Source of the DNA: an uncultured Desulfovibrionaceae bacterium | Lineage (GTDB): Bacteria > Bacillota > Dethiobacteria > DTU022 > UBA8154 | Assembly (NCBI GenBank): GCA_964603615.1 | Contig: CAZRVU010000002.1 | Coordinates: 9,677 to 73,676 of the forward strand | Reading direction: 5' to 3' | DNA length: 64,000 nucleotides | Shown: positions 5,179 to 61,668 of the stretch, piece after piece | Layout of the letters: each line of letters opens with the position of its first letter | Numbering within the stretch: the first letter of the stretch is position 1 | Made by a program: the position numbers and the translations under genes | The notes under the pieces: model-generated | Database searches by the model: none | What the model was told of the DNA's origin: nothing | What the model saw: the letters and a program-made list of their open reading frames with translations, nothing else

Positions 5179-5356
5179 TGATTCTACTGCATAAACTCTA
5201 TTTGCCAGGCATTCGCTGCAATCAGCATCCCTTCGACTGACTATTTTTTGCCCGGGCCTAATTGAATGTCCTCTTCAAAAGGCCCTAAAATGGCGTCCTG
5301 CCATTTTAGCTTCAAAATTGTGGCGTCTTCATGGGCTGATTTTTACAGCTACCGCC
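5179..5356 (+). repeat. MITE-like repeat, copy A (3'-truncated, ~178 bp)
   Basis: Begins TGATTCTACTGC and is near-identical to the copies at 51181, 52357 and 53294 through ...GATTTTTACAGCTACCGCC. It lacks the last ~50 bp and ends within 8 bp of the spoIIR stop codon. Confidence 0.75.
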
Positions 5357-42776: not shown

Positions 42777-44767
42777 TTTGTGTTCTCCTCAACCAGGACA
42801 AGGGGAAGCACTTCCTCAACATTGTCCAGATAATTAATCTTCATATCTTTTAAGATAACAGATAACCCACAGCGGTTTTCCCTGGGCAAAATCACTTGGC
42901 GAATGCCAGCCAGCCTCGCCCCGTATAATTTTTCCACCAGGCCCCCGACAGGTTTTAGTTTTCCCTGCAAAGAAAGTTCACCGCTAACTGCAATATCTTG
43001 GCGCAGCGGCACCCGCTTTAGGGCACTGTACAATGCTAAAAAGAGTGCCACGCCGGCAGAAGGCCCTTCGATATTGGCGCCGCCGATGATATTAATATGT
43101 AAATCATATTCGCTAATTTCCAGGCCGCTCAATTTGCGTAAAACGGAAGCTGCATTGAAAACAGAATCACGCGCCATTACGCCGGCGGCTTCATTAAAAC
43201 GTATTTTACCCTTTCCAGATTGTGAAGCGGGGAAGGAGATGGCTTCGATCTCTAAAACTGTGCCCCAATACCCCGCTGCCGCCAGACCATAAACCTTCCC
43301 TATCTCCGCTCCCAAAGTGTTACGGGAAAAAGCCATGGGAAGCAAACGGTTGTTTTGAATAACTTCTTCGATAAGCCTGATATCCAACACAACTTTATTA
43401 TTCTTTTCTGCCCTTTTATTTCCAAGCAAAGCTTCCTTTTTATCCCCGGGGAATCCGTTCGAAAAACAGCGGCTTTGTTTTTTCCCGGTAAAACTGCTGT
43501 AAAGAGCCAGTCCATAAGCATCGGCTAAAAGGTTTATTGCCCCCCTGCCCTCGTTCGTGTAGCGGCAAATTATTTTTTGGGCGCCGGCAGTCAGCTTCAC
43601 ACCTATTTTTTTGGCCGCATTTTTTACGATCTTTTGAATATCATCCGGAGAGAGCGGTTCAAAATAAACCGCACTGCAGCGCGATCTTAATGCCGGCGAA
43701 ATTTCCGCCGTAGTTTTGGTCGTCGCTCCAACCAGGATAAAATCGGCCGGGGCACCTTCTGAAAACAGTTTATGAATATATTGGGGCACCTGCGGAGCAG
43801 AAGGATCGTAATAGGCAGAATCAAAAAATACGCGCTTATCTTCCAGAACTTTGAGCAATTTATTTTGCAGTTGCAAGTCCAATTCGCCAATTTCATCGAT
43901 GAAAAGCACACCCCCATGTGCTTCTGTCACCAAACCAAGTTTTGGCTCGGGGATACCTCCTTCACTTAGTTCCCGCTTAGCCCCCTGGTAGATTGGATCG
44001 TGCACTGAACCTAGCAACGGGTTGGCAGTTTCCCGGGGATCCCAACGCAAGGTTGTAGCATCGACCTCTACAAAGGGTGCCGTGCTCTTCAGAGGTGTAT
44101 AGGGCGTATTTTTTGCAGTTTCCAGCGCCAGGCGGGCTGCCGCCGTCTTTCCTACGCCCGGCGGCCCATAAATTATGAGATGTTGGGGGAAAGGCGAGGC
44201 CAACTTGGACATTAAAGCCCGGATACCTTTCTCTTGTCCAATAATTTCTTCCAAAGCAGAAGGCCTAAAAAATTCCCTGGCCGACCGGGATAGACTGGTC
44301 GCCGACATTTTCTCCAAAAGCGCATATTTCTTTAAGGTCTGGGAATTCTCTGGCCCCCCTTCTTCTTTCAACAACTGTTCCTTTACTTCACGGATATATT
44401 CTTCGTGCCGTTCCTGCAGCTTTATATTAACTTTCTCCTCTAGTGAATCCTCCAGCAAGCGACGGGTCAAAACTTCAGCCGCCTGTTCCTCCATCTCATC
44501 CAATAGTGTCGGAATTTGAGGATATGGAGCTGTTTGTTCCAATACCGGATCTTCAAACACTAATTTTTGCATCCCCAGGACCTGGTTTTCTAATTTTGAG
44601 GACTGCAGCAGTTCCAAAGCCTCAAATTTTGCAGCTTTTAAAATAAGGTTGTCTGCACCATAGATGGTCACCAGTAAATCATAAAAAGCCTTAACTCTTC
44701 TTTGCAGGTTTTCTTCGTTAGTGGCGGGCATAAATGCAATCGGATTCTTTGACAGCTTAGACATCAC
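42773..44767 (-). CDS. Lon-like ATP-dependent protease (AAA+ plus S16 peptidase domain)
   Basis: 664 aa; Walker A (IYGPPGVGKTAAARLA) and a C-terminal Lon protease domain with catalytic GPSAG (NIEGPSAGVALFLAL) and the Lys-containing GGLVEK; 4-bp overlap with the dnaB start. Confidence 0.8.
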   Translation of the reverse strand: MMSKLSKNPIAFMPATNEENLQRRVKAFYDLLVTIYGADNLILKAAKFEALELLQSSKLENQVLGMQKLVFEDPVLEQTAPYPQIPTLLDEMEEQAAEVLTRRLLEDSLEEKVNIKLQERHEEYIREVKEQLLKEEGGPENSQTLKKYALLEKMSATSLSRSAREFFRPSALEEIIGQEKGIRALMSKLASPFPQHLIIYGPPGVGKTAAARLALETAKNTPYTPLKSTAPFVEVDATTLRWDPRETANPLLGSVHDPIYQGAKRELSEGGIPEPKLGLVTEAHGGVLFIDEIGELDLQLQNKLLKVLEDKRVFFDSAYYDPSAPQVPQYIHKLFSEGAPADFILVGATTKTTAEISPALRSRCSAVYFEPLSPDDIQKIVKNAAKKIGVKLTAGAQKIICRYTNEGRGAINLLADAYGLALYSSFTGKKQSRCFSNGFPGDKKEALLGNKRAEKNNKVVLDIRLIEEVIQNNRLLPMAFSRNTLGAEIGKVYGLAAAGYWGTVLEIEAISFPASQSGKGKIRFNEAAGVMARDSVFNAASVLRKLSGLEISEYDLHINIIGGANIEGPSAGVALFLALYSALKRVPLRQDIAVSGELSLQGKLKPVGGLVEKLYGARLAGIRQVILPRENRCGLSVILKDMKINYLDNVEEVLPLVLVEENTK

Positions 44768-44838
44768 CGGCAGCAGAATATATGGCTACCTGGCCACCAT
44801 ATATTCTGCTGACCTCCTTTCTGATACATCTTATTCTG

Positions 44839-44877
44839 TGATTCTACTGCAGAATGTAGCTTTTGCAGTGGAATCAT
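44839..44877 (+). repeat. Mini-copy of the MITE-like element (TIR pair only)
   Basis: TGATTCTACTGCAGAATGTAGCTTTTGCAGTGGAATCAT keeps only the two terminal inverted repeats and a short linker; it forms a 12-13 bp hairpin, and its terminal TCA (TGA on the minus strand) is the rplI stop codon. Confidence 0.65.
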
Positions 44878-45320
44878 TCTGTTTTTTCCACTAAAACCAG
44901 GATCGAAGCAGTTACCTCCGGGTGCAGTTTAATCTGCACCGTATAATCACCCAATGCTTTAATGGGTTCCTCAAGAATTATTTTTTTCTTGTTAATATTA
45001 ATTCCACTTTTGGTAAGCCCTTGCGCAATATCTGCAGAAGTGACTGAACCGAACAAACGGCCGCCTTCGCCGGCCTTTACTTTAATAGTTATTTTTTCTT
45101 CCGCTATCCTTGCAGCCAGATCCTCTGCCGCTTTCAGCTTTTTAGCCGCTTTTTGGGCACGAATATCGTCTTGCATTTTTAGATCCTTAAGGTGGCCGGC
45201 AGTTACTTGCTGGGCTAAATTTTTGGGAATCAAGTAATTCCGGGCGTAACCAGCGGCCACCTCCTTAATTTGGCCCTTTTCCCCTACATTAGGAACATCC
45301 TTCAAAAAAACAACCTTCAA
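44874..45320 (-). CDS. rplI: 50S ribosomal protein L9
   Basis: LKVVFLKDVPNVGEKGQIKEVAAGYARNYLIPKNLA matches the L9 N-domain; start assigned to TTG at 45320 with RBS GGAGG 8 nt upstream. The ORF opens at 45344. Confidence 0.85.
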   Translation of the reverse strand: MKVVFLKDVPNVGEKGQIKEVAAGYARNYLIPKNLAQQVTAGHLKDLKMQDDIRAQKAAKKLKAAEDLAARIAEEKITIKVKAGEGGRLFGSVTSADIAQGLTKSGININKKKIILEEPIKALGDYTVQIKLHPEVTASILVLVEKTE

Positions 45321-45520
45321 CCTGGCAACCTCCTTTCCAAACAACAGGTTACAAAAATAAACACGCAGCTAAGTTGGTGTTCATCTCTTGAGTCACGACA
45401 TTGGCATAAAATATAACTTGAAAAATAGTGCCTGTCCTACCAGTTAAATTTTCGCTGCCTTTCTTTGATTTCCTGCTTATCAAGTCAGTAGAATTAAATA
45501 CCAGATAGGCAGATCTACAC

Positions 45521-48149: not shown

Positions 48150-49247
48150 TTAGACTTTGAAACGAAAATAGATCACATCCCCGTCCTGAATCTGATAGTC
48201 TCTTCCTTCTAAACGCAAAATTCCTTTCTCTTTTGCAGCTACCACCGATCCAGACTGCAGCAGTTCCTCCCAGTTAATCACCTCCGCGGCGATGAACCCT
48301 CTTTCCATATCACTGTGCACCTCTCTGGCACCGCGGCGCGCCGGCGTTCCCCTGGGAACTGCCCAGGCCCGGGCTTCCTGACCCTTGATGGTAAAATAAG
48401 TAATCAATTGCAAAAAATCATACCCTATTTTAACCAACCTGTTTAAACTTGTTTCCTCCAGTCCATATTCTCGAAGGAATAATACCTTGTCCTCTTCATT
48501 CATTTCCTCCAGTTCGCCCTCCAAGGATGCACAAATACTAATAACTGGTGCTCCCTCTGCCTCCGCCAGCCTGCGTACCGTTTTAACCGGCACTGGTTCC
48601 TCCAAAAAGAGATCTCCCTCATCGATATTGACGACATAAACCACCGGTTTGGATGTTAGCAGTTGCAGCTCCTCCAGTATCTTTTTTTCTTCTGCTTCGA
48701 TCTCCAAACTGCGTGCGGTCTGCCCCTTGCTTAGATGTGCATAAACTTTTTCTAAAAGTTCTTTCTGCGCAAAGGCCTCCTTAGTAGCACCTTTAACGCT
48801 CCGTTGTGCCTTCTCCAGCCTTTTTTCGAGAACAGCAAGATCGGAGAGAATTAGCTCCAGTTCTACAATTTCAATGTCTTGCCGGGGTTCCGGGACCCCG
48901 ACTAAATGCGGAACGTCTGGCGCGTTGAAACCCCTCACAACATGCAGAAGTAGATCCATCTCCCGGATATGAGCTAAGAAACGATTGCCCAGACCTTCCC
49001 CTTGACTGGCGCCCTTTATCAAACCGGCAATATCGACGATAGACAAGGTTACCGGGGTTACTTCCGTGGAAGAAGCTAGGGCCGCAACCCTTAAAAGACG
49101 TTCATCTTTAACCGGAACAACTGCTCTATTCGGTTCAACTGTAGCAAAAGGATATTTTGCTCTCTCCACCGGTAGGCTGGAAAGAGCAGTAAATATCGTT
49201 GATTTACCAACATTGGGTAAACCAACCAATCCACATTTAAAACCCAT
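48150..49247 (-). CDS. ychF: Redox-regulated ATPase YchF (Obg-family GTPase)
   Basis: MGFKCGLVGLPNVGKSTIFTAL (G1), DIAGLIKGASQGEGLGNRFLAHIRE (G3) and a C-terminal TGS domain. Confidence 0.95.
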   Translation of the reverse strand: MGFKCGLVGLPNVGKSTIFTALSSLPVERAKYPFATVEPNRAVVPVKDERLLRVAALASSTEVTPVTLSIVDIAGLIKGASQGEGLGNRFLAHIREMDLLLHVVRGFNAPDVPHLVGVPEPRQDIEIVELELILSDLAVLEKRLEKAQRSVKGATKEAFAQKELLEKVYAHLSKGQTARSLEIEAEEKKILEELQLLTSKPVVYVVNIDEGDLFLEEPVPVKTVRRLAEAEGAPVISICASLEGELEEMNEEDKVLFLREYGLEETSLNRLVKIGYDFLQLITYFTIKGQEARAWAVPRGTPARRGAREVHSDMERGFIAAEVINWEELLQSGSVVAAKEKGILRLEGRDYQIQDGDVIYFRFKV

Positions 49248-49262: not shown

Positions 49263-49454
49263 TTAACAACTTTCTCCGGGTTCTTCGACGATCTCCTTTA
49301 CTTTACGTTCGAACTTTTGTCGTGACAAAAGCACGCTCCGACCGCATTTTAAACACTTGATACGAAAATCCATACCAATACGTATAATGCGCCAAAGTTC
49401 CCCGCCACATGGATGATTTTTCCGCATACGCACTATTTGACCTAACTTATACAT
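49263..49454 (-). CDS. DUF951 family small protein (YyzM-like)
   Basis: 63 aa with HPCGGELWRIIRIGMDFRIKCLKCGRSVLLSRQKFERKVK, matching the DUF951 CxxC zinc-ribbon pattern; adjacent to ychF as in Bacillus. Confidence 0.75.
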   Translation of the reverse strand: MYKLGQIVRMRKNHPCGGELWRIIRIGMDFRIKCLKCGRSVLLSRQKFERKVKEIVEEPGESC

Positions 49455-49534
49455 ACTTTCATCCCCTGAAAGCTTCCCTAATCATAATACTACGCTCAAC
49501 GGTCTAACTGCAAGCTATCTTTAGAAACTATTTA

Positions 49535-51148
49535 GGGCTTTCTGCACAACCTGTCATTTTTAACAAACTAAGCTGCAGCAGGTAAAACCCGGCTTGCCCT
49601 TGGCAAAAATAATGCCTTGAAAACGTAAAAAACGCTCTTTGAAAAAAAGACAAAAAGAAGCCTAAGTAAATAGGCAAGATTCATCACAATGAGGTTAATA
49701 GCAATCACCGCTTCGCTGGTTTCCTGCAGCTTTGTTTTAACTAAGTTCAGCCCATACTTCCTTTTCCCTTCGCCGAACTTACCTTCAACCCAGTTGCGAT
49801 CGAGTGCATCCTCGTGGGCCTGTTTTCTAGCGTTGGGATCTGGGTTTTTCGGTGGCCGGCCCAGCCTTGGCCCGCTGAGGCGGATACCGCGTTTAGTGCA
49901 GTAACGAATGTTGTCACGCGTACGGTAAATCTTATCGGCATGAACTGATACCGGATAGAAACCATGGCGGAATCTGTATCTTTCAACCGTTTCCATGAGG
50001 GTGACCCCTTCATGGAAGTTATCCCAGGAGAGCTTCTCCAGGTAGGCCAAACCGTCTACGATGCTAATGGCCAGCTTGGCACCAAATTCTACGTTTGTCC
50101 GGGCCTTGCCCCGTACAATCGGCCTCACATGAGGTTGGCTGATGCTCACGATACGGTCTTTGATGTGATGGGTCTGATGATCGTACATGTACTTTTGTTG
50201 TTGATAAAGTTTTTGGATGGTCTTGAGTTCTTTAGACTGCTTGGGGGTAAGGGGGCTTTCAAGATGCTGCCCTTCCAGTTTGGCGATACTTTTTAGGTTG
50301 CGATACAGATAAGCAAGCTGTTTTTTGATTGCTCTTCGTAGTTGTTTTTTACGCGGCTTGCGCATCTTGGCTATCTTTAGATATTCTTTCCTGGCAATCT
50401 GGCGATAGGTACGTGGCTTTTTAATCCTACCTTGCAGCGGCAGGTAGAGGGTATCGATGTGCTCTTCGGTTTTTTCCCGTGCTTCGTTTAAGAGGCCAAG
50501 ATCAGTGGGGTAGCGGATATCAGCCGGAACACAGGTGGCATCCATGATCAGCTTGCCTTTGTTTTCTGTAGTTTTAGCAGGGTTCTTCGGTTCTTTGCTT
50601 GTGGCCAAAGGAGGGTCATCATCGTCTTTTTTATCCTTTGCACAGATGGTTTCGTTGATCGTGTTGAGTTGGTCTACGCTAAAGCGCTGGCGAAAGCGGG
50701 CCATCAGTGATGGGTCGAAGAGCTTTTCGTTTGTGTATTCTTTGAAACCGAGGAAGTATTGCAGGTAGGGGTTCTCCCGGATCTGCTCGACTGTTTCTTC
50801 ATCGGAAAGGCCTAAGGTCTCCTTGATGATTAAAGCACCTAGGGCTACCCTGGCCGGTTTTGCTACATTGCCGGTATTGCTGGGAAAAAGATCTGCATAG
50901 CTGTCTTCAATTTCGTCCCAGGGGATCATTTTAGCTTTGATCACCCAGCGGTTATTGGCTGAAAGGGCACCGCTGAAGGGCAGGATGAAATCATCAATGG
51001 TGAGCTGGTTGTCTTTTTTTCGATACATTTTTGTCACCTCATGTGCAAGGTTTTGGAGGGCTTGTGATTGTTTTTCTTGCACTTATTATACCATAAATGT
51101 GGGGTAAATGCAGTAATTATCGGGATCTGTGGGTTGTGCAGGAAGCCC
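49535..51148 (-). mobile_element. Intact insertion sequence (IS1182/IS5-like) with 17-bp terminal inverted repeats
   Basis: Left end GGGCTTTCTGCACAACC (49535-49551) and right end GGTTGTGCAGGAAGCCC (51132-51148), a 16/17 inverted match. Both flanks read (C)TATTTA, a probable 6-7 bp target-site duplication. Carries a single transposase gene. Confidence 0.8.
49568..51082 (-). CDS. IS1182/IS5-family DDE transposase
   Basis: 504 aa; N-terminal InsH/DUF772-like region (LGLSDEETVEQIRENPYLQYFLGF), a basic linker, and a C-terminal DDE domain. Confidence 0.8.
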   Translation of the reverse strand: MQEKQSQALQNLAHEVTKMYRKKDNQLTIDDFILPFSGALSANNRWVIKAKMIPWDEIEDSYADLFPSNTGNVAKPARVALGALIIKETLGLSDEETVEQIRENPYLQYFLGFKEYTNEKLFDPSLMARFRQRFSVDQLNTINETICAKDKKDDDDPPLATSKEPKNPAKTTENKGKLIMDATCVPADIRYPTDLGLLNEAREKTEEHIDTLYLPLQGRIKKPRTYRQIARKEYLKIAKMRKPRKKQLRRAIKKQLAYLYRNLKSIAKLEGQHLESPLTPKQSKELKTIQKLYQQQKYMYDHQTHHIKDRIVSISQPHVRPIVRGKARTNVEFGAKLAISIVDGLAYLEKLSWDNFHEGVTLMETVERYRFRHGFYPVSVHADKIYRTRDNIRYCTKRGIRLSGPRLGRPPKNPDPNARKQAHEDALDRNWVEGKFGEGKRKYGLNLVKTKLQETSEAVIAINLIVMNLAYLLRLLFVFFSKSVFYVFKALFLPRASRVLPAAA

Positions 51149-51180
<32 letters not shown>

Positions 51181-51409
51181 TGATTCTACTGCCTAAATTT
51201 TATTTGCCAGGCATTCGCTAAAATCGGCAGCCATGCGACTGGCAATTTTTCACCCGGGCCAATTGAACGTCCGCTTCAAAAGGCCCTAAAAATGTCGTCC
51301 GGCCATTTTTGCTGCAAAATTGTGGCGTCTTCATGGGCTAATTTTTACAGCTTCGCCCCGGGCAAATTGCGCTTTATGCAGCAGAATGTAATTTTTGCAG
51401 TGGAATCAT
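51181..51409 (+). repeat. MITE-like repeat, copy B (full length, ~229 bp)
   Basis: TGATTCTACTGC...GCAGTGGAATCAT; the termini are imperfect 13-bp inverted repeats, and the copy ends on the adk stop codon. Confidence 0.75.
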
Positions 51410-52062
51410 TAATTAACTATTTTTTTTAAAAGGTCGGCAATATCCGTAAATACATCATTAATCGGGCGCGAACCATCCACACTATAATAAAGATCCTTCT
51501 GTTTATAATAATCAATAATGGGCATGGTTTGCTTACAATAAACAGACAGTCTTTCTTTTACAGCATCAACATTGTCATCGCTTCTTTGATATAATTCACC
51601 GCTGCAATGATCACAAATATTACGCACTTTGGGAGGGTTAAATTTTAAATGATACGATGCACCGCAATTACGGCAGACTCTTCTTCCTGTTAAACGATCC
51701 GTCAACTCTTCTTCCAAAACATCTATATTTACTACTGCATATATTTTTAATTGGAGCTCATCTAAAATTTCATCAAGAGCCTGGGCCTGTTCTACTGTCC
51801 GGGGAAACCCATCCAAAAGAACTCCGTTACTGCTACCATGTTTTGCCAGGTAATCTTTAACTAAAGAAATCACCACTTCATCCGGGACTAGTTTACCTTT
51901 ATAAATATATTCTTTTGCTTTATTGCCTATTTCCGTTCCCTCTTTAACAATATTGCGGAAAATTTCGCCGCAGGAAACATGAGACAACGCAAAACCCTTG
52001 GCTAATTTTTCCGCCTGTGTACCTTTACCGGCACCAGGGGCGCCCATCAAAACAATAAACAT
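51409..52062 (-). CDS. adk: Adenylate kinase (zinc-lid type)
   Basis: MFIVLMGAPGAGKGTQAEK (P-loop), LLDGFPRTVEQAQAL, a zinc lid CRNCG...CDHCSG and LYQRSDDN; about 55% identical by eye to B. subtilis Adk. AT-rich codon usage relative to neighbours. Confidence 0.9.
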   Translation of the reverse strand: MFIVLMGAPGAGKGTQAEKLAKGFALSHVSCGEIFRNIVKEGTEIGNKAKEYIYKGKLVPDEVVISLVKDYLAKHGSSNGVLLDGFPRTVEQAQALDEILDELQLKIYAVVNIDVLEEELTDRLTGRRVCRNCGASYHLKFNPPKVRNICDHCSGELYQRSDDNVDAVKERLSVYCKQTMPIIDYYKQKDLYYSVDGSRPINDVFTDIADLLKKIVN

Positions 52063-52356
52063 AAGAAAACCTCCCTTTTAGTAAAAAGATTCTGATAACA
52101 ATGCTTGGATTTTCATAAGTTTCACTAATAATTGAATATAAAAAATTACTTATTCTTTCAGCTACTTCTGGTCAAAACACGCTTAAATGTAATTATTTCT
52201 CCGTAATTATTCAAAATCCTGCCTTACTAACACATATATTTCTAACTTTGAGCCATAATGAATAAAAGCACAATAAAAACTTAATTTTAAATAATTTAAA
52301 ACCGGGCCCTAACTAGAACTGGATCTATTGTTTCTCATCTTTTTATTGCCTATTCA

Positions 52357-52585
52357 TGATTCTACTGCCTAAATTCTATTTGCCAGGCATTCGCTGAAAC
52401 CAGCAGCCCTTCGACTGGCAATTTTTCACCCGGGCCAATTGAACGTCCTCTTCAAAAGGCCCTAAAAATGGCGTCCGGCGATTTTTGCTGCAAAATTGTG
52501 GCGTCTTCATGTGCTGATTTTTACAGCTCCCGCCCGGGCAAATTGCGCTTTATACAGCAGAATGTAATTTTTGCAGTGGAATCAT
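52357..52585 (+). repeat. MITE-like repeat, copy C (full length)
   Basis: Same element as copy B; about 90% identical across 229 bp; ends 22 bp upstream of the yyaC start. Confidence 0.75.
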
Positions 52586-52607
52586 TCATGCGAAAGGAAC
52601 TATTAAG

Positions 52608-53201
52608 ATGCACCCTTCGACAACAAAAAACGCTGAAAATTTTTACTTCCCCTTGCCAGCAACGATCTTTCCCCATACAAAGGGAGCCTTGACTACTTTT
52701 ACACAAGTCCTGGGCTCTTTGTTGACTAAACTGCAAAATTACCACACACAACTAATCATTCTTTGTATTGGCAGCGATCGTTCCACCGGTGATTCCCTCG
52801 GGCCCCTGGTCGGTAGCGTTTTACAAGAGTTCCCTTTACACAACATTACTGTACTGGGCACACTTTCCCAACCTGTCCATGCTTTAAACCTTCCCGATAC
52901 CCGCGAATTATTATCAAACCATTATAAAACCGCTGCCATTCTTGCTATTGATGCTTGTTTGGGTCAAAAAAGCAAGGTGGGTTGCCTTGAAATTGGTAAA
53001 GGAAGCATCTACCCTGGCGCGGCTGTAAAAAAGTCTATTCCTCCCATTGGCGATCTCTTCATTACCGGTATCGTCAACGTAGGGGGTTATATGGAGCCAC
53101 TAATTTTACAAAACACACGCCTTGGAATCGTTTTTCCCCTGGCTAAATTTATTGGTTTGGGCGTTTATAAAGCCATCTGCGCGACAGAATGGCTTCTTTA
53201 A
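52608..53201 (+). CDS. yyaC: Sporulation protein YyaC (GPR-like spore protease family)
   Basis: LIILCIGSDRSTGDSLGPLVG, HALNLPDT, AIDACLG and ITGIVNVGGYMEPLILQNTRL align with B. subtilis YyaC (VVVCIGTDRSTGDALGPLVG...). Confidence 0.85.
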   Translation: MHPSTTKNAENFYFPLPATIFPHTKGALTTFTQVLGSLLTKLQNYHTQLIILCIGSDRSTGDSLGPLVGSVLQEFPLHNITVLGTLSQPVHALNLPDTRELLSNHYKTAAILAIDACLGQKSKVGCLEIGKGSIYPGAAVKKSIPPIGDLFITGIVNVGGYMEPLILQNTRLGIVFPLAKFIGLGVYKAICATEWLL

Positions 53202-53293
53202 GGAGGCCGAATATGTGGAATCATCAGTCTATATGGTGACAAATAAGGAAATATCGCGAGGATTTCGTGGTAAGGGCTAGCTCAAAACATTTA

Positions 53294-53522
53294 TGATTCT
53301 ACTGCCTAAACTTTATTTGCCAGGCGTTCGCTGAAACCAGCAGCCCTTCGACTGACAATTTTTCGCCCGGGCCAATTGAACATCCTCTTCAAAAGACCCT
53401 AAAATGGCGTCCGGCCATTTTTGCTACAAAATTGTGGCGTCTTCATGGGCTGATTTTTACAGCTACCGCCCCGGCAAATTTCGTTTTATGCAGCAGAATG
53501 TAATTTTTATAGTGGAGCCATT
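53294..53522 (+). repeat. MITE-like repeat, copy D (3' TIR degenerate)
   Basis: 5' TIR TGATTCTACTGC intact and internal sequence conserved; the 3' end reads TATAGTGGAGCCATTT. Confidence 0.7.
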
Positions 53523-53638
53523 TATAAATTATCACTTAAGGTGATGTCCCTGAGGCTGGCAAAACGTTCCTGGAACAAAACCGGCCCTTAAAACAATGCA
53601 AACAAAGATGGCGCCTTGCCCAGTATTCCTAGCCCCTT

Positions 53639-53654
53639 TGTTTCACGTGAAACA
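53639..53654. promoter_or_regulatory. parS centromere site
   Basis: TGTTTCACGTGAAACA is a perfect 16-bp palindrome matching the Firmicutes parS consensus tGTTnCACGTGAAACa, 11 bp downstream of the parB stop. Confidence 0.8.
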
Positions 53655-53664
53655 TTATCGCTTT

Positions 53665-54540
53665 TTACTTAAGCAGCAACGTCAATAATCTTTCCAAATC
53701 TTCTTCACCGTAAAAAGATATTTCCACCTTTCCTTTACGTCTTCCTGCTTTAATCTTAACCTTAGTACCATAAATATCCCTCATTTTTTCTTCATATTCT
53801 TTGATCTGTTGCTGCGATTCTTGCTTTTCAGCGCTAGTTTCCCCCTGTAATGCCTCTTTTTCCTGTCTATTGATTTGTCCCTTCACCAGTTTTTCTACTT
53901 GCCTGGCGCTAAGCTTTTCTTCTATTACTTTTAAGGCAATCCTCTTCTGTTCCTCGCCGTTGCTCAAAGCCAGTAAGGGCCGGGCCTGCCCTGCCGTAAT
54001 AGAGCCATCCGCAAGATAGCTTTGCACTTCATCTTCCAGGGCTAACAAACGAACGGTGTTAGCGATCGTCGAGCGACTCCGCCCTAGTTTTTGCGCTAAA
54101 TCATCTTGTAGGTATTCAAATTCCTCCAATAATTTTTTATAAGATATTGCTTCTTCAATGGGATTCAAATTTTCCCTTTGCAAATTTTCAACCAGTGCGA
54201 TTTCTACCGACTGCCGGGAGCTATATTCTTTAAGGATAGCCGGTATTTTATCTAAACCGGCCATTAAAGCAGCGCGATATCTTCTTTCCCCGGTTACCAG
54301 ATAATAGTATCCCTCTTTTTTTTGTAATATTACTGGTTGTAGCACCCCATATTCTTTGATTGTATCAGATAGTTCCTTTAATTTTTCTTCATTAAAATTT
54401 TTTCTAGGTTGGTGCGGGTTGGGTTTTACCAAATTTAAAGCAATCTCTACCACACCTTTTTCAGCAGGGATCTTCTCTTCATTAATTTCAGGTATTAGTG
54501 CCCCCAGACCTTTACCCAATCCAAGTTTTTGCTTACTCAT
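53665..54540 (-). CDS. parB: Chromosome partitioning protein ParB (Spo0J)
   Basis: ParB box (GERRYRAALMAGL), an HTH (SRSTIANTVRLL) and a C-terminal dimerisation domain; overlaps parA by 4 bp. Confidence 0.9.
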   Translation of the reverse strand: MSKQKLGLGKGLGALIPEINEEKIPAEKGVVEIALNLVKPNPHQPRKNFNEEKLKELSDTIKEYGVLQPVILQKKEGYYYLVTGERRYRAALMAGLDKIPAILKEYSSRQSVEIALVENLQRENLNPIEEAISYKKLLEEFEYLQDDLAQKLGRSRSTIANTVRLLALEDEVQSYLADGSITAGQARPLLALSNGEEQKRIALKVIEEKLSARQVEKLVKGQINRQEKEALQGETSAEKQESQQQIKEYEEKMRDIYGTKVKIKAGRRKGKVEISFYGEEDLERLLTLLLK

Positions 54541-55295
54541 CTTCTAGCAACCTCCTCTGCCATAATTTTATAGACCTCCGCCCCTTTGCTGCGCGGATCA
54601 TATTCAATAATTGGCTTACCATGGCTGGGGGCTTCACTCAGCCTGACGTTCCTGGGTATAACAGCATCAAAGACAATTGCTCCAAAATAATTTCTTACTT
54701 CTTCCGCAACCTGAGCAGCTAAATTAGTCCGGCTGTCATACATTGTCAGAAGAACACCACCAATTTTTAGCTTACTGTTAAGATGCTTTTTAACCAGATT
54801 AATCGTTTTTACTAGTTGGCCTAATCCTTCCAGCGCATAATACTCACATTGAATCGGAACTAGTACCGTATCGGCTGCAGTCAATGCATTTAAGGTAAGC
54901 AACCCCAAAGAAGGTGGGCAATCAATAATAATATATTGAAATTTATCTTTTAGGGGCCTGAGCATCCGGCGCAATCTCATTTCACGCGAAATTGTCGGGA
55001 CTAATTCGATTTCAGCCCCGGCTAATTGTATAGTAGCCGGAATAACAAAAAGGTTATCCTGTTTTGTAGAATAGATTACTTTTTCTAACGGTATTTCATT
55101 AATTAAAGCATCATATATACATGTTTTAACCTTTTCTTTGTCCAAGCCAATCCCGCTAGTAGCATTTCCTTGAGGATCAATATCTAACAACAACACTTTG
55201 TTACCCAATTCGGCTAAACAGGCGGCCAAGTTAACGGCTGTAGTTGTTTTTCCTACCCCACCCTTTTGGTTGGCAACTGCTATAATTCCTTGCAC
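54537..55295 (-). CDS. parA: Chromosome partitioning ATPase ParA (Soj)
   Basis: Deviant Walker A KGGVGKTTTAVNLAA and the downstream ParA motifs (DCPPSLGLLTLNAL). Confidence 0.95.
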   Translation of the reverse strand: MQGIIAVANQKGGVGKTTTAVNLAACLAELGNKVLLLDIDPQGNATSGIGLDKEKVKTCIYDALINEIPLEKVIYSTKQDNLFVIPATIQLAGAEIELVPTISREMRLRRMLRPLKDKFQYIIIDCPPSLGLLTLNALTAADTVLVPIQCEYYALEGLGQLVKTINLVKKHLNSKLKIGGVLLTMYDSRTNLAAQVAEEVRNYFGAIVFDAVIPRNVRLSEAPSHGKPIIEYDPRSKGAEVYKIMAEEVARR

Positions 55296-55478: not shown

Positions 55479-56312
55479 TTATATTTGATCTTTAGGCATG
55501 CGAATTCTTATTTCCCAAAAATTTTCATGTTCTATCTCCTCCACGATAGGCTTTAAACCGGCATTTCGAATTATACCTAATGCTTGTCTGATCGTGTTTA
55601 AAAATATCCTTAGATCTTTAATAACTACCTTTCTTTGCCTCTTGAGGCCGCCCCTCTTTTTTTCGTTTTGTTTAAATTTTTTAATTATTTCTTCGGTTTC
55701 CTTAACAGTTAAATCCATTTCTAGTATAATATTTACTACTTCCATCTGTTTTTCCACTGAGTCAAGCTTTAATAGTGCACGTGCATGACGTTCGGTGAGT
55801 TTTCCCGCAAGCAATATTTCATTAATTTTTGCAGGCAGCTTCAATAACCTCATTTTATTAGCAATCGTAGATTGACTTTTACCTAATCTTTGTGCCAGGA
55901 CCTCTTGCGTTAGATCGAATTCTTCCATTAGCCGCTTGTATCCTTTTGCCTCTTCCATATAATTTAAATTTTCTCTTTGCAAATTTTCGATCAGGGCTAC
56001 TGCTGCCAATGAACTACCGCTATAATCCCTCACAATCGCAGGTATTTCCGACCAATTAAGCAGTTTACATGCCAGGAAACGTCTTTCACCGGCAACGATA
56101 CGATAACCGTTCTGCTCTGTTGTAAGGAGTATTGGTTGCAGCAAACCATATGTTTTAATCGACTGCGCCAGCTCTTTTATCTTTTCATCTTCAATGTTTA
56201 TTCTTGGTTGATAAGGATTATTCGTTATAAGTTCCGTTTTTACATTACGCACATCTTCCCTCACTTTACTATTACGTTCTAAAGGTATCTTTTTACTTTT
56301 TTCTGACCACAT
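55479..56312 (-). CDS. ParB-family paralog (Noc-like nucleoid occlusion protein)
   Basis: ParB box (AGERRFLACKLL) and an HTH (SQSTIANKMRLL) but a divergent C-terminus; position upstream of parAB matches noc. Start set at MWSEK with an RBS; the ORF opens at 56360. Confidence 0.75.
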   Translation of the reverse strand: MWSEKSKKIPLERNSKVREDVRNVKTELITNNPYQPRINIEDEKIKELAQSIKTYGLLQPILLTTEQNGYRIVAGERRFLACKLLNWSEIPAIVRDYSGSSLAAVALIENLQRENLNYMEEAKGYKRLMEEFDLTQEVLAQRLGKSQSTIANKMRLLKLPAKINEILLAGKLTERHARALLKLDSVEKQMEVVNIILEMDLTVKETEEIIKKFKQNEKKRGGLKRQRKVVIKDLRIFLNTIRQALGIIRNAGLKPIVEEIEHENFWEIRIRMPKDQI

Positions 56313-56397
56313 TTCATCACCCCGGTATACATTTGATTCTAGTAGCCTTTTGTAGCGCAATATTTCTTTCTTAATTTATGAATAGGCCATCTTTGTG

Positions 56398-57174
56398 CTA
56401 ATTTTTGTATTTGTTGTAATTATTCGACATAGTGATTATTTTTCCTGCCCCTTGCTCAGATATTTTATTATACCAGGGCCTTTTTTGTGGTATGCCGTCT
56501 CTGCGGGGGAATTTTTCTTCTGCTTTATTCACTTTTTTAATGATGAAGATCATCCTATCTTTTCCACAATCCGGCAACCTGTAAGACTTAACGTCCACAA
56601 GTTTGCCGCCACAACGCAGTAATATATCCCTGGCCCGGCCTAAATCTTGTAAACCCTTTGGCCCCTGCCAGGACCAAAATTCACCCCCCACCCCTACAAG
56701 GGGCAAGGCTAATTCCAAAATAACAGCCAGCGGTGCTACAGCGCGCGCCACAACCCAGGGAAATTTTTCCCTCATCTCTCCCCGCGCTAAATATTCAGCC
56801 CTTTGCTGCCATAAAGTAACCTCTTGCAGTTTTAAATCCCGCACAACTTTTTTTAAAAATAAAACTTTTTTCCCTGCCGCCTCCACTAAAAACAGTTTTA
56901 TCCACGGCAATAATATTTTTATAGGTATCCCGGGGAAACCTGCGCCACTTCCTAAATCTAATAATTTTTCCCCGTAAGGCTCGCTCCCCAGCCCGTACAA
57001 AGAATCATAAAAATGTTCTTCGATGATTGCCGCTTGCTCTATAATACGTGTCAGGTTGTATTTTTTATTCTCTTGCTGCAAAATTTTTATGTAGCGCTGG
57101 AAAAGAATTACTTGATTATCGTCTAAATCAATACCATATTTTGCAAACACGTCTTTAATTGCTTTAATCTCCAT
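56398..57174 (-). CDS. rsmG: 16S rRNA (guanine527-N7)-methyltransferase RsmG (GidB)
   Basis: SAM-binding LLDLGSGAGFPGIPIKIL and the RsmG fold; 258 aa. Confidence 0.9.
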   Translation of the reverse strand: MEIKAIKDVFAKYGIDLDDNQVILFQRYIKILQQENKKYNLTRIIEQAAIIEEHFYDSLYGLGSEPYGEKLLDLGSGAGFPGIPIKILLPWIKLFLVEAAGKKVLFLKKVVRDLKLQEVTLWQQRAEYLARGEMREKFPWVVARAVAPLAVILELALPLVGVGGEFWSWQGPKGLQDLGRARDILLRCGGKLVDVKSYRLPDCGKDRMIFIIKKVNKAEEKFPRRDGIPQKRPWYNKISEQGAGKIITMSNNYNKYKN

Positions 57175-57283
57175 TTTATTTAATCTAACCCTGTTATTTT
57201 ATTCTTAACTACCCCGCGTATAAAGGATAGGACTGTTCAAGACTAAAGCAGCTCTTTCTTTTTTTCCTATATTTATTTGTAAG

Positions 57284-57330
57284 CAAATTCCGTTTTATGC
57301 ATCAGAATGTAATTTTTGCAGTGGAAACAT
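57284..57330 (+). repeat. MITE-like repeat, 3'-terminal fragment (copy F)
   Basis: AAATTCCGTTTTATGCATCAGAATGTAATTTTTGCAGTGGAAACAT matches the last ~47 bp of copies B and C; lies 5 bp from the mnmE stop, in the mnmE-rsmG gap. Confidence 0.65.
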
Positions 57331-57335
57331 TTTTA

Positions 57336-58763
57336 TTATTTACCGATACAAAACTTTTGAAAAACATTTTCTAGCACATCCTCACCGACCTCTTGCCCGA
57401 GCAGCTCCTCTAAATGCTTTTTTGCCCGTCGCAAATCAATGCCGATCAAATCTAATGGAATATTACTATTAAAAGCTTCCCTTGCTTCCTCTAAATTTAC
57501 CTTAGCTTTTTTTAGCAGTTCTTCTTGTCTGGCTTCCATAATAAAGGCACTCTCTTCAGCAACGATCATTCCTGAATATACCATCTCACCAATAGCTTCC
57601 TCCAACTTACTAAGCCCGGCCCCGTTTTCTAGTGATGTTTCGAGCACCAACCTTCCTGGAAACGCCTCCTTTACCTCTTGCGGCGATATCCTCTGCTTTA
57701 AATCTATTTTATTAAGAATAATAATCAGATTCGCCCCCGGACTGCCCTCTTGTTCAATATTATGATAAATCCAGCGATCATCCGTTGAGATCCCCCTTGA
57801 TGCATCTAATATCAATAAAATCAGATCTGCTTCCGCCAGGACCCTTCTAGATAATTCCATGCCTATTTTTTCTACTTCGCCCCCGTTGAGATGTAAACCT
57901 GCCGTATCAATTATTTTTAAAGGAACACCTTGAACATTTATATATTCCATTAATAGATCACGCGTTGTCCCTGGTATATCTGTGACAATAGCGCGTTCCT
58001 CCCTTAGAAAATAATTATACAGGGAAGACTTACCAACATTGGGACGGCCAGCGATCACTGTTTTAACTCCCTCTTGCAATATTTTTCCCTGAAATCTTTT
58101 TTGCAGCAGCAAGTTAATATTTGATAACATATTTTCTATTTTTAAAGCACTATCCCTGGCCCCTTCCAGCTCTCTTTCTAGATCAGGATCATCGTAGGCA
58201 AAGTCTACCTCCACTTCAATCTGCCCCAGAAGGGAAATTAGTTCAGCGCGCAGCGCTTTAATTTCATCTGAAAGTGACCCTTTGAGTCCTAATAGCGCAC
58301 CATGCAAAGCTTTATCTGTCTTGGCTTTAATCAAAGTTAAAACGCTTTCAGCCTGCACCAAATCTAACCTTCCGTTCAGATAGGCTCTTTTCGTAAATTC
58401 CCCCGGTTCAGCTAAGCGGGCACCTTTATCTAGCACAGTCCTCAATATATTTTTTAAAACAACAGCACCTCCATGCGCGTTGATCTCTACAACATCTTCA
58501 CAAGTATATGAATGGGGGCCGGGCATAAAACTCAAGAGTACTTCATCGATTTCATTCCCCTGCCCGTCTAGAACATAGCCGTAATAAAGCTTTCGCGCTC
58601 TTAGGAAAAAGCTTTTATTAGATGTTTCTTTACGTTTGTCTTTACGAACAAATATTTTTAAGGAAATATTTAAAGCATCTTTACCGCTAAGGCGTACAAT
58701 ACCAATGCCCCCTTCACCGGGGGGTGTGGAAATAGCTGCAATTGTTTCTTCGGGGTCATTCAT
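57336..58763 (-). CDS. mnmE: tRNA modification GTPase MnmE (TrmE)
   Basis: MNDPEETIAAISTPPGEGGIGIVRLSG N-domain, G-domain (GRPNVGKSSL, DTAG) and the C-terminal CIGK. Start at the ATG at 58763 with RBS AGGTGA; the ORF opens at 58781 with GTG. Confidence 0.95.
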   Translation of the reverse strand: MNDPEETIAAISTPPGEGGIGIVRLSGKDALNISLKIFVRKDKRKETSNKSFFLRARKLYYGYVLDGQGNEIDEVLLSFMPGPHSYTCEDVVEINAHGGAVVLKNILRTVLDKGARLAEPGEFTKRAYLNGRLDLVQAESVLTLIKAKTDKALHGALLGLKGSLSDEIKALRAELISLLGQIEVEVDFAYDDPDLERELEGARDSALKIENMLSNINLLLQKRFQGKILQEGVKTVIAGRPNVGKSSLYNYFLREERAIVTDIPGTTRDLLMEYINVQGVPLKIIDTAGLHLNGGEVEKIGMELSRRVLAEADLILLILDASRGISTDDRWIYHNIEQEGSPGANLIIILNKIDLKQRISPQEVKEAFPGRLVLETSLENGAGLSKLEEAIGEMVYSGMIVAEESAFIMEARQEELLKKAKVNLEEAREAFNSNIPLDLIGIDLRRAKKHLEELLGQEVGEDVLENVFQKFCIGK

Positions 58764-58883
58764 CTGCTCTTTCACCTGCACAGACCTTTATTCATATTCT
58801 TTATCTCACACTCTTAAAAAATAAGGAGTTCATTAGAACTCCCTCTTTTTACCACTACTGTTTCATTTCCCTGGAAATATTTT

Positions 58884-59513
58884 TTAGCGTGGTGAAATAA
58901 CAATTTTACGGTAAGGTTCTTCCCCCTGACTAGAGGTAACTACATCCCGATTATTTTTCAAAGCCAAATGAATAATTCTCCTTTCCTGCGGATTCATTGG
59001 CTCTAGGGCTACTTCTTTTCTAGTCCTTAAAGCTTTTAAGGCTAAATTTCTAGCCAAATTTTCTAATGTTTTTTTTCGCTTATAGCGGTAATTTTCTATG
59101 TCGAGAATAATCCTTTGTTTTTGTGCTGCAAATTGTCTATATAAGACAACATTAGCCAGGTATTGGATGGCATTTAAGGTGTTGCCCCGTTTACCAATTA
59201 AAATACCTAAATTTTCTCCTGTAATTTCATAATGCAGGTTTTCTTCATCATTTTCTTCAGAAGTAATCTTAATCGTTCCCTCTACTCCCATAATATTAAC
59301 TATATTTTCCAGAAACTCCTGAATGTATTCATCAACCTCTTTGAGTACGGTCAACCTTAATTTGGCCTGTTTAGAGCTGATAAATTTTAACAGTCCTTGC
59401 GCCGGTTCGCTCAAAATCTCTATTTGAACATTTTCTTTTTTTACACCTAATATTTTTAAACCTTCTTCCAGCGCATCCTCAATTGTCTTAGCGCTAACCT
59501 CAATTGTATTCAT
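58884..59513 (-). CDS. jag: Jag protein (KH + R3H RNA-binding, SpoIIIJ-associated)
   Basis: 209 aa; Jag_N, KH (GKRGNTLNAIQYL) and R3H (ERRIIHLALKNNRDVVTSSQGEEPYRKIVI); overlaps the yidC stop. Confidence 0.85.
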   Translation of the reverse strand: MNTIEVSAKTIEDALEEGLKILGVKKENVQIEILSEPAQGLLKFISSKQAKLRLTVLKEVDEYIQEFLENIVNIMGVEGTIKITSEENDEENLHYEITGENLGILIGKRGNTLNAIQYLANVVLYRQFAAQKQRIILDIENYRYKRKKTLENLARNLALKALRTRKEVALEPMNPQERRIIHLALKNNRDVVTSSQGEEPYRKIVISPR

Positions 59514-60337
59514 CTTTTCTTTTTGGCCCCTTTCTTCTTACCTTTAGCCACCTTTTTTTTAATTTTGGGGGCATTTTTGTCCGTCTTTAACGTTTTTTTA
59601 TCTTTCCCTGTTTCAATTTTACTGAGGCCTTTAACTTTTTCTGGTTCTTTTATTACAGATTGTTTAACTTGGGCCATCTTTTTCTCCTGCATCTTTGGTT
59701 CGTTTTTATCCTTTTCCCCTTTACCAAAAATAAATAATTGATTACCTATCGAAAATATCGAATTTGTAAACCAATAAAGAACCAGTCCCGCGGGAAATTT
59801 AATACTAATGGCTGCAATCATCACCGGGAAAACATATAGCATTGTCTTTTGACGGGGATCTGTAATAACCATGCGCTGATGAAAAAAAGTTGCAGCGGCA
59901 GCTAAAATAGGCATAACATAAAAAGGATCTTTTTCGGTTAAATCTAGCCAAAGAAAATTTGGATTAAAAGTTTTTCCTATTGCCTCAGCAATTTGAGCCG
60001 GTTCCCGCAGAAGAGTAAAGACGGCAATCATAATTGGAAACTGAATTAAAAGAGGTAGACAACCCCCTAAAGGATTTACTTTATTCTCTCGCATATATTC
60101 CATTGTAACTCTGTTATAAGCTTCCTTATCGTTCTTGTATTTTTCTTGTAGTTTTTTTAGTTCCGGCTGAATATCTTGCATTTTTTTTGAAGATTCTAGC
60201 TGTTTTTTAGTCAAAGGAAACATAATAATATTAACGAGAATAGTAAGCATAATAATAGCTAAACCATAACTTTCCCCTGCTATATTATATAAATAACTTA
60301 ATATTATATTTATATACCCACTAAGGGCCTGTATCAT
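59510..60337 (-). CDS. yidC: Membrane protein insertase YidC/SpoIIIJ
   Basis: FPLTKKQLESSKKMQDIQPELKKLQEKYK, NPLGGCLPLLIQFPI and a Lys-rich C-terminal tail; 275 aa. Confidence 0.9.
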   Translation of the reverse strand: MIQALSGYINIILSYLYNIAGESYGLAIIMLTILVNIIMFPLTKKQLESSKKMQDIQPELKKLQEKYKNDKEAYNRVTMEYMRENKVNPLGGCLPLLIQFPIMIAVFTLLREPAQIAEAIGKTFNPNFLWLDLTEKDPFYVMPILAAAATFFHQRMVITDPRQKTMLYVFPVMIAAISIKFPAGLVLYWFTNSIFSIGNQLFIFGKGEKDKNEPKMQEKKMAQVKQSVIKEPEKVKGLSKIETGKDKKTLKTDKNAPKIKKKVAKGKKKGAKKKR

Positions 60338-61249: not shown

Positions 61250-61668
61250 CATGCAAAATCCTTTCTTTTAGGTAAATTAGAGTTACATTTACCCCTTCAA
61301 ACTCTGAAACTCATTATAACGCATCTATTCTAGACATGCAACACAGTGCAGCAGCATTTTTATGTAGTTATTAACATCTTGCGCAACACATTTTTTATTA
61401 ATAGTTGCCACTATTTTCCCCTGTGTTCAACCTTAAACTTTTTTTATATAATTAAGCTCCTTTACAATCTGCTCTATCCTTAAAATTCTGACAAATTGAA
61501 AATATTCCACGACTTAGCTTTTATTTAATCCTCACTTTAGATATTGCTGTGAAAGATGGCATCTGTTATTATATATGTTGCAGGTATTCGCACTTTTAGG
61601 TTATCCACAGCAAATGTGGATAACCTAAAATAACTGTGGATAATTATTTTTTGATGGAGGTTCAATTT
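61250..61668. promoter_or_regulatory. oriC part 1: DnaA-box cluster and dnaA promoter region
   Basis: Three consensus DnaA boxes, TTATCCACA/TGTGGATAA, at about 61591-61599, 61606-61614 and 61635-61643, within AT-rich sequence upstream of dnaA. Confidence 0.7.

Follow-up and report, generated by a model that had tools for sequence, protein, structure and literature searches.

Bacterial MITEs, such as Correia of Neisseria, RUP of Streptococcus pneumoniae and bcr1 of Bacillus cereus, are ca. 100–300 bp long, intergenic, bordered by terminal inverted repeats and flanked by short target-site duplications, TA for Correia and RUP and a fixed TTTAT for bcr1. The repeat described here, found in a 64-kb stretch of DNA (the whole of it referred to below as the window), is an ordinary element of this well-known kind that forms a new family. 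It resembles Correia, RUP and bcr1 in being small, non-coding and intergenic, in its terminal inverted repeats, AT-rich target and long hairpin, and in having many diverged copies together with truncated and internally deleted derivatives. It differs in its target-site duplication, which is 5–6 bp long and variable in sequence, and has no sequence similarity in the searched collections beyond one MAG. With REP, BIME and REPIN sequences it shares the intergenic location, repetition and palindromic character; however, REP units are ca. 20–40 bp in size, carry no target-site duplications and occur in association with RAYT (IS200-like) genes, whereas the element is ca. 227 bp long and has both inverted repeats and duplications, so the initial annotation was right to regard it as too long and too structured for a REP sequence. 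The element is very probably a MITE of a new family, a ca. 227-bp non-coding derivative of a DDE-type insertion sequence.

Six loci of the element are present in the window, comprising three full copies, one 3'-truncated copy, one 5'-truncated copy, and one deletion derivative, all on the plus strand:

5179..5356, + strand: copy A, 3'-truncated, consensus positions 1-177 (nhmmer E 4.6e-61)
44839..44875, + strand: mini copy, 37 nt, the left-end 12 nt joined to the right-end 25 nt
51181..51407, + strand: copy B, full length (nhmmer E 2.3e-79)
52357..52583, + strand: copy C, full length (nhmmer E 1.1e-81)
53294..53519, + strand: copy D, full length (nhmmer E 3e-80)
57283..57328, + strand: fragment, 5'-truncated, right end only, consensus positions 181-227 (nhmmer E 2e-08)

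The same six loci and no others were recovered from the 64-kb window by repeat finding, alignment, blastn, and an nhmmer profile search, in agreement with the initial annotation, which had reported a ca. 230-bp repeat at six loci with copies over 85% identical and in one orientation; the pairwise identity among the long copies is 85.2–93.4%, with B and C being the closest pair (93.4%). The loci it delimited are upheld, while the final one or two bases of its boundaries are better read as target-site duplication; for all boundaries given here the element ends are drawn as TGATTC...GGAATC. Similarly, the mini copy is indeed a small derivative, although it does not consist of the inverted repeats alone, as had been proposed. 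In the alignments the similarity between copies stops exactly at the inverted repeats, and within the window no copy forms the end of a larger element. A reading of copy A and the 57283-57328 fragment as halves of one split copy (1-177 plus 181-227) was rejected, since the sequences bordering them on the outside, ATAATC and ATTTTT, are no matching duplication and the adjacency of gidB and mnmE is ancestral.

The termini, TGATTCTACTGC on the left and GCAGTGGAATCA on the right, are complementary save for one T/C position and form inverted repeats of 12–13 bp, extendable to 25 nt at 80%. With up to two mismatches allowed, the window contains 11 matches to TGATTCTACTGC and 15 to GCAGTGGAATCA, where 3.5 and 4.1 would be expected; such counts were not reached in any shuffle. 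This bears out the imperfect 13-bp terminal inverted repeat described earlier. Over its full length the element is imperfectly palindromic, its self reverse-complement score being 58 versus −12 ± 17 for shuffles. Terminus-like sites are also found in subterminal positions, one at 192-209 matching the left tip in 14 of 18 positions and another at 51-68 matching it in 11 of 18. The motif (G/C)ATTCNRCTG seems to be present twice at each end, in a terminal and a subterminal position, although the excess of internal terminus-like matches (four, compared with 1.0 ± 1.1 in shuffles, p ca. 0.04) supports this weakly.

Perfect AT-rich duplications of 5–6 bp flank five of the seven complete copies, and the flanks of the remaining two differ by one mismatch:

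Copy C: ATTCA, 52352-52356 and 52584-52588, perfect, 5 bp
Copy D: ATTTA, 53289-53293 and 53520-53524, perfect, 5 bp
Mini copy: ATTCTG, 44833-44838 and 44876-44881, perfect, 6 bp
Copy B: ATTATT at 51175-51180 (where an (ATT)n run ends) and ATTAAT at 51408-51413, 5 of 6 positions matching
Copy L002: ATAGTA, perfect, 6 bp
Copy L004: TATAA, perfect, 5 bp
Copy L001: ATATA and ATATC, one mismatch

A flank repeat of at least 5 bp at a fixed boundary is met by chance at 0.27% of random window positions and 0.73% of those in AT-rich flanks, which gives a binomial probability of ca. 1e-10 to 1e-12 for its presence in five of seven copies. The bases outside TGATTC differ between copies and make up the duplication; for copy C, where it had been guessed to be ATTCAT or TTCA, ATTCA is present on both sides. 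As the tips are ambiguous with nine copies to compare, the length of the duplication depends on how they are drawn, being 5–6 bp for TGATTC...GGAATC, 4–5 bp for TG...CA, and 6–7 bp for GATTC...GAATC. The ends of IS21-family or Tn552/Mu-type elements have TG...CA tips and several transposase-binding repeats each. If the ambiguous tips of the element are TG...CA, its 4–5-bp duplications and the terminal plus subterminal motif at each end (p ca. 0.04) would resemble such ends; genes of the IstA/IstB or Tn552 type, however, were not seen.

The initial annotation proposed a search for copies elsewhere, and three further full copies, 87–90% identical, were found in the MAG Bacillota bacterium AS23ysBPME_345. 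They lie between unrelated housekeeping genes (MFS/TrmO, MsrAB, and AddA/radical SAM), at sites non-syntenic with those of the window and with flanks showing no similarity to it. In scans of species-representative genomes and JGI metagenomes, performed once each with the right-end pattern, these three copies were the only real matches, the match L003 in the genomes and both metagenome matches being due to chance. The whole element gave no blastn match in plasmid and phage collections, its left 40 nt gave none in plasmids, and viral contigs yielded nothing either. Checks of the literature, of Rfam, and of the plasmid and phage collections were all negative, and it is in relation to these that the element is called new. 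Among named homologues of the proteins encoded in the window, the closest are from Dethiobacteria MAGs; the second genome carrying the element was deposited simply as "Bacillota bacterium".

In three relatives with YyaC 73–79% identical (L008, L010, and L015) the gene order is kept and the element is absent from all the syntenic sites. The sequence at the site of copy C is contiguous in L008 and L010, the yyaC–parB spacer, occupied in the window by copy D, measures 117 nt in L010 and 205 nt in L015 and lacks the element in both, and the gidB–mnmE spacer, which holds the fragment, is 37 nt long in L010, while in L015 the two genes abut. A strain 99.3% identical (L014), on the other hand, retains copies C and D at the same places.

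The window copies are situated between housekeeping genes close to the replication origin. The insertions have survived in intergenic DNA only, often precisely at a stop codon, with a junction that spares the host protein. The right end lies 0–16 nt from a stop codon in five of nine copies, and three host genes terminate at a stop codon that arose at or next to an element junction. The mini copy sits within the rplI stop codon, the TGA of the filled site being formed at its junction; removal of the mini copy and one duplication in silico leaves an ORF coding for an identical protein and ending with TAA, which agrees with the pattern of filled and empty sites in relatives. The last 8 nt of copy A overlap the 3' end of spoIIR (5349-6287, minus strand) and provide its TAG stop; the SpoIIR C-terminus reads KKRRR* in the window versus KKRR* in relatives. 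The adk stop codon (51409-51411) falls in the right flank repeat of copy B, copy C precedes the yyaC start codon by ca. 24 nt, copy D is between the convergent yyaC and parB, and the 57283-57328 fragment is 7 nt from the mnmE stop codon. The clustering of copies around adk and yyaC was noted before, and the identities of these flanking genes are upheld by PF00406 and DUF1256, respectively (YyaC is named a spore protease). Several copies begin directly after the stops of minus-strand genes.

The earlier suggestion of a MITE-like non-autonomous transposon is well supported by the inverted repeats, the duplications, dispersal in two genomes, the empty sites, the lack of coding capacity, and the truncated and deleted derivatives. 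In the proposed mechanism, the parent would be a DDE-type insertion sequence of the cut-and-paste or copy-paste kind, whose transposase, encoded outside the window, would bind the terminal inverted repeats TGATTCTACTGC.../...GCAGTGGAATCA and probably also the second, subterminal copy of the motif at each end. The element ends would then be linked to AT-rich DNA cut in a staggered manner, and the short target-site duplication would result from repair at the cuts. To judge from their 7–15% divergence, the truncation of two of them, and the persistence of C and D in the 99.3% identical strain, the copies look old and are probably inactive. Against the MITE reading count, besides the negative search for an autonomous parent described below, the uniform orientation of the window copies (6 of 6) and the proximity to stop codons (5 of 9), neither of which is predicted by simple random insertion.

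It is very unlikely that the element is instead a structured non-coding RNA or a terminator/attenuator module spread by recombination and kept for a role at the RNA level, e.g., as a 3'-UTR hairpin, which was the fallback offered in the initial annotation. The element can indeed form a long hairpin (plus strand, −72.8 kcal/mol, z −2.85), the sole mismatch of the terminal stem would be a G-U pair on the plus strand, and the position of several copies right after minus-strand stops would suit such a role. However, the minus strand folds equally well (−73.5 kcal/mol, z −2.7), as any DNA palindrome should, and only one of the three full copies has a terminator-like hairpin; matches to terminator and promoter signals exist at the consensus level only and at about chance frequency, and such a function was rejected. 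Rfam gave nothing at gathering thresholds for the whole window and noise alone at E up to 10 for 51100-53600. Among the six full copies compensatory changes were found at 0 of 78 predicted pairs and the covariation score equalled that of shuffles (RNAalifold and pair counting, with limited power), 22 of the 78 pairs departing by unpaired cells alone. Moreover, recombination does not yield target-site duplications, and one copy in AS23ysBPME_345 is oriented opposite to its flanking genes. A protein-coding role finds no support either, in line with the earlier statement that the repeats contain no ORF: no frame is open in every copy, and indels between copies shift the frames. A hidden ORF in frame +0, open in B, C, and L002, was rejected since it is broken in D, L001, and L004, and the substitutions in it are mostly non-synonymous, with no synonymous bias.

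Local segmental duplication of intergenic sequence at adk/yyaC by unequal recombination or gene conversion, with no transposition at all, would account for the presence of three copies inside 2.4 kb and for B and C being the most alike, but its probability is practically negligible. It is refuted by the AS23ysBPME_345 copies at unrelated loci and by the distinct duplication flanking each copy, and it also disagrees with the copies 46 kb away and with the exact end of similarity at the inverted repeats. An element of a non-DDE type, e.g., a palindrome-associated one of the IS200/IS605 type moved as single-stranded DNA, would explain the uniform orientation near the replication origin, since the six window copies are co-oriented on one replichore (dnaA lies at 61636-63027, with minus-strand genes to its left) and the element is rich in hairpins. 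IS200/IS605 elements have no terminal inverted repeats, produce no target duplication, and insert 3' of a fixed short target. The element, in contrast, has inverted repeats and variable duplications, and its flanks vary with no fixed 4–5-nt target on the left, making this alternative extremely unlikely. Orientation bias, furthermore, has been reported in Firmicutes for many DDE insertion-sequence families as well (PMC3971601). Rather unlikely, too, is a mobiliser belonging to an uncatalogued lineage of insertion sequences, either with an IS1380-like transposase acting on ends without CC tips or with two binding sites per end and insertion in one orientation at AT-rich 3' ends of genes. The latter, if true, would mean orientation-specific, stop-codon-proximal targeting and not a plain AT preference combined with selection.

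As to the parent of the putative MITE, the search for an autonomous element sharing its ends was negative in the 64-kb window, in the plasmid, phage, and viral collections, and in the species-representative and JGI metagenome scans. The IS5-family transposase encoded beside copy B (49568-51082) was rejected as the parent because the inverted repeats there, 19 bp long, bear no relation to the ends of the element. A weak lead, based on a comparison of end sequences, points to the IS1380 family, for which the ends of ISEcp1, IS1678, ISSsu5, and IS1247 were fetched. The ISEcp1 IRL, CCTAGATTCTACGT, and IRR, ...ACGTGGAATTTAGG, have the cores GATTCTAC and GTGGAAT in common with the element ends, and display the same left/right T/C asymmetry. 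The common core is 8 nt long and could be due to chance, roughly estimated at a few per cent given the many insertion-sequence ends compared. The duplications of ISEcp1 and IS1247 are 5 bp long (PMC6061673; PMC3281130). Compared with the 4–5 bp of the IS1380 family, the element has duplications of 5 bp (C, D, and L004) or 6 bp (mini copy and L002), values that vary with the choice of tips. In contrast to the inverted repeats of ISEcp1, IS1678/ISSsu5, and IS1247, which start with CC(T/C)R, the element has no CC tips, and its duplications adjoin T/GATTC directly. When the element was aligned over its whole length to these insertion-sequence ends, the scores were no better than those of shuffles, and no IS1380-type transposase was found near any copy. 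The parent transposase, if found, would bear on the occurrence of ISEcp1-like ends outside the canonical IS1380 family.

With this element, a further MITE family becomes known from an uncultured and little-studied lineage of spore-forming Bacillota. The practical effects are modest. The insertions at rplI, adk, and spoIIR illustrate that a stop codon can receive a MITE with no harm to the gene, and the copies mark strain and species boundaries. The repeats also break short-read assemblies of these organisms: the sole public contig with the exact Adk protein of the window, a Logan contig of 1,056 bp, ends inside two copies.

The ca. 227-bp repeat is very probably a MITE, as the initial annotation proposed, and represents a new family within a well-known class of elements; this reading is supported by target-site duplications, dispersal, empty sites in relatives and the restoration of rplI. 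The repeat search over the whole window gave one main family, with members at 5179 (copy A), 51181 (B), 52357 (C) and 53293/4 (D), and shorter families adding loci 44842 (the mini copy) and 57283 (a fragment). MAFFT alignment, blastn and an nhmmer profile search all agree on these six loci and on no others in the 64 kb, so that the six-copy family originally described is real. The long copies share 85.2–93.4% pairwise identity, and all window copies are intergenic. Except at one T/C position, terminus TGATTCTACTGC is the reverse complement of terminus GCAGTGGAATCA, in keeping with the imperfect inverted repeats claimed; with up to two mismatches they occur 11 and 15 times in the window versus 3.5 and 4.1 expected, counts reached in no shuffle. 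At 80%, the inverted repeat extends over 25 nt. Copy A comprises consensus positions 1–177, the fragment (57283–57328) positions 181–227, and the mini copy the left-end 12 nt fused to the right-end 25 nt. The two truncated copies, 5179–5356 and 57283–57328, are complementary in consensus span and both are broken at a CCGCCCCGG stretch; they were rejected as halves of one insertion, their outer flanks not matching as a duplication, and the breakpoint that they share is possibly a hotspot for deletions.

The following genes were identified by Pfam in the window, the origin region of a genome from a spore-forming member of the Bacillota (44.9% G+C).

Genes of the window (coordinates, strand)
61636–63027, +, dnaA
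60736–61113, -, rnpA
59510–60337, -, yidC
58884–59513, -, jag
57336–58781, -, mnmE
56398–57174, -, rsmG/gidB
55479–56360, -, noc/parB-like
54537–55295, -, parA
53665–54540, -, parB
52608–53201, +, yyaC
51409–52062, -, adk
49263–49454, -, DUF951
48150–49247, -, ychF
44874–45344, -, rplI
42773–44767, -, lonB-like
5349–6287, -, spoIIR

YyaC and SpoIIR have their closest named homologues in Dethiobacteria MAGs. A perfect parS-like palindrome, TGTTTCACGTGAAACA, lies at 53639–53654, 10 nt downstream of parB, and keeps the same place in two relatives (L010 and L015).

Flanks were read with the element bounds TGATTC...GGAATC in the window and at L001, L002 and L004, three full copies in the MAG Bacillota bacterium AS23ysBPME_345.

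Flanking sequences of complete copies (left / right)
Copy C: ATTCA / ATTCA
Copy D: ATTTA / ATTTA
Mini copy: ATTCTG / ATTCTG
L002: ATAGTA / ATAGTA
L004: TATAA / TATAA
L001: ATATA / ATATC
Copy B: ATTATT / ATTAAT

Perfect duplications thus border five of the seven complete copies, and that of copy C, ATTCA, agrees with the initial suggestion of ATTCAT or TTCA. Since a flank repeat of at least 5 bp at a fixed boundary occurs at only 0.27% of random window positions (0.73% with both flanks AT-rich), the probability of this result is ca. 1e-10 to 1e-12. Left duplications start with A in 6/7 cases and a T follows the right one in 7/7; three tip models therefore fit equally: GATTC...GAATC with a 6–7-bp duplication of the form AT..AT, TGATTC...GAATC with 5–6 bp, and TG...CA tips with 4–5 bp.

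The ends of three host genes lie at or within a junction. The mini copy sits in the rplI stop codon, its TGA being composed of the duplicated T and the GA of the element tip; in-silico removal of 37 nt and one ATTCTG yields an rplI ORF that ends in TAA and encodes the same 156 residues (...LVEKTE), the L9 C-terminus of a relative being ...LVEKKE. The adk TAA stop lies within the right flank repeat of copy B, and truncated copy A supplies the spoIIR TAG stop and last Arg codon (...KKRRR in the window versus ...KKRR in relatives). SpoIIR has 312 aa in the window versus 231–277 aa in relatives and 329 aa in the more distant P0128, and its N-terminal and linker regions are long and poorly conserved.

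The relatives L008, L010 and L015 (79, 78 and 73% YyaC identity, respectively) keep the gene order dnaB-lon-rplI-...-ychF-DUF951-adk-yyaC-parB-parA-noc-gidB-mnmE, and their contigs have no match to the element.

Spacer lengths (relatives; window)
DUF951–adk: 82 / 74 nt; 1,954 nt (IS plus copy B)
yyaC–parB: 117 / 205 nt; 463 nt
gidB–mnmE: 37 / 0 nt; 161 nt
lon–rplI: 72 nt; 106 nt

At site C the bases just outside the element align to unbroken yyaC upstream sequence in L008 and L010. A scan of 185,579 species-representative genomes, extending the search beyond the window as had been advised, found further copies, the three in AS23ysBPME_345, which are full and 87–90% identical. These lie in the MFS transporter/TrmO gap, upstream of msrAB and in the addA/radical-SAM gap, loci with nothing but the element in common with the window; L001 1300–2900, ca. 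1.6 kb upstream of the MFS gene, holds no ORF of at least 80 aa. A metagenome scan gave two matches only, both by chance. The range so far comprises the window's organism, the strain contig L014, which has 99.3% identity to the window, and this one other species-representative MAG. L014 has copies C and D at the same positions, and its 16 differences from the window do not cluster within copies. L007 (Logan SRR8925753, 1,056 bp), the one public contig that encodes an Adk protein identical to that of the window, ends within copy C at one side and copy B at the other; the repeats therefore break short-read assemblies of this organism.

No frame is open across all copies, which bears out the claim that the element lacks an ORF, and nearly every substitution between copies B and C would alter an amino acid. 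A structured RNA or terminator module, the alternative first offered, was not supported. Folding is strong for either strand (z ≈ -2.8 and -2.7) because the element is an imperfect palindrome over its full length, but no Rfam family matches it, and among the six full copies none of the 78 predicted pairs shows compensatory changes, 22 depart by unpaired cells only, and the covariation score equals that of shuffles. A terminator-like hairpin was called in one copy only, and promoter-like matches are roughly as frequent as chance would give. REP- and CRISPR-type repeats were rejected, as in the initial annotation, and an IS200/IS605-type element is incompatible with the inverted repeats and duplications.

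For the MITE, the mechanism with the best support is mobilisation in trans, by a transposase of the DDE type; we infer that such an enzyme would recognise the element ends and cut AT-rich DNA with a short stagger. No transposase for the element was found. The IS5-family one beside copy B was rejected as parent, as it belongs to a separate element whose inverted repeats are unrelated to those of the MITE. This complete insertion sequence (ca. 49534–51149; transposase ORF 49568–51082, minus strand; NF033578; Pfam DUF772 and DDE_Tnp_1_2) is bounded by 18–19-bp inverted repeats, (T)AGGGCTTTCTGCACAACC, and its flanks show what appears to be a 4-bp duplication (ATTT); it has inserted into the DUF951–adk interval, and L008 and L015 lack it. 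An (ATT)n microsatellite of ca. ten units (51151–51180) separates it from copy B and may have grown from the left duplication of that copy (ATTATT versus ATTAAT at the right).

The case for an IS1380-family parent is not strong. The ends of ISEcp1 (IRL CCTAGATTCTACGT; PMC6061673), both read from pC15-1a, share with the element two cores, GATTCTAC and GTGGAAT, as well as the left/right T/C asymmetry, and ISEcp1 and IS1247 make 5-bp duplications (PMC6061673; PMC3281130). However, ISEcp1, IS1678/ISSsu5 and IS1247 all start with CC(T/C)R, which the element lacks, and the whole element aligned to their ends scores no better than shuffles. The motif (G/C)ATTCNRCTG seemingly occurs twice per element end: positions 192–209 match the left tip at 14/18 and 51–68 at 11/18, with four internal terminus-like matches against 1.0 ± 1.1 in shuffles. 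Two sites per end, TG...CA tips and 4–5-bp duplications are features of IS21-/Tn552-like transposons, which would fit the element, although as a candidate parent these are likewise not strong.

Divergence among copies is 7–15%, truncation has affected two of them, and a second strain shares C and D, so that the family appears to be old and probably inactive. The window copies are not clearly nearer to one another than to those of the MAG. All window copies have the same orientation; among the copies whose two flanking genes are co-directed, five (A, mini, B, the fragment and L001) lie antisense to these genes and one (L004) lies sense. An insertion-sequence-type orientation bias, documented for many families in Firmicutes (PMC3971601), and selection against polar insertions explain this equally well, nine copies being too few to tell them apart.

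In relatives without the MITE, the same spacers hold different repeats that are rich in GC (L008 9130–9830, adk–yyaC; L015 2640–2845; ends of L020–L023), including ca. 100-bp units with CCCTTTGGAGGTGGCG...GTGCAGC and a hairpin-like TGTGTGAAAA...CACTCTG repeat, where several contigs end; these are possibly further mobile repeat families.
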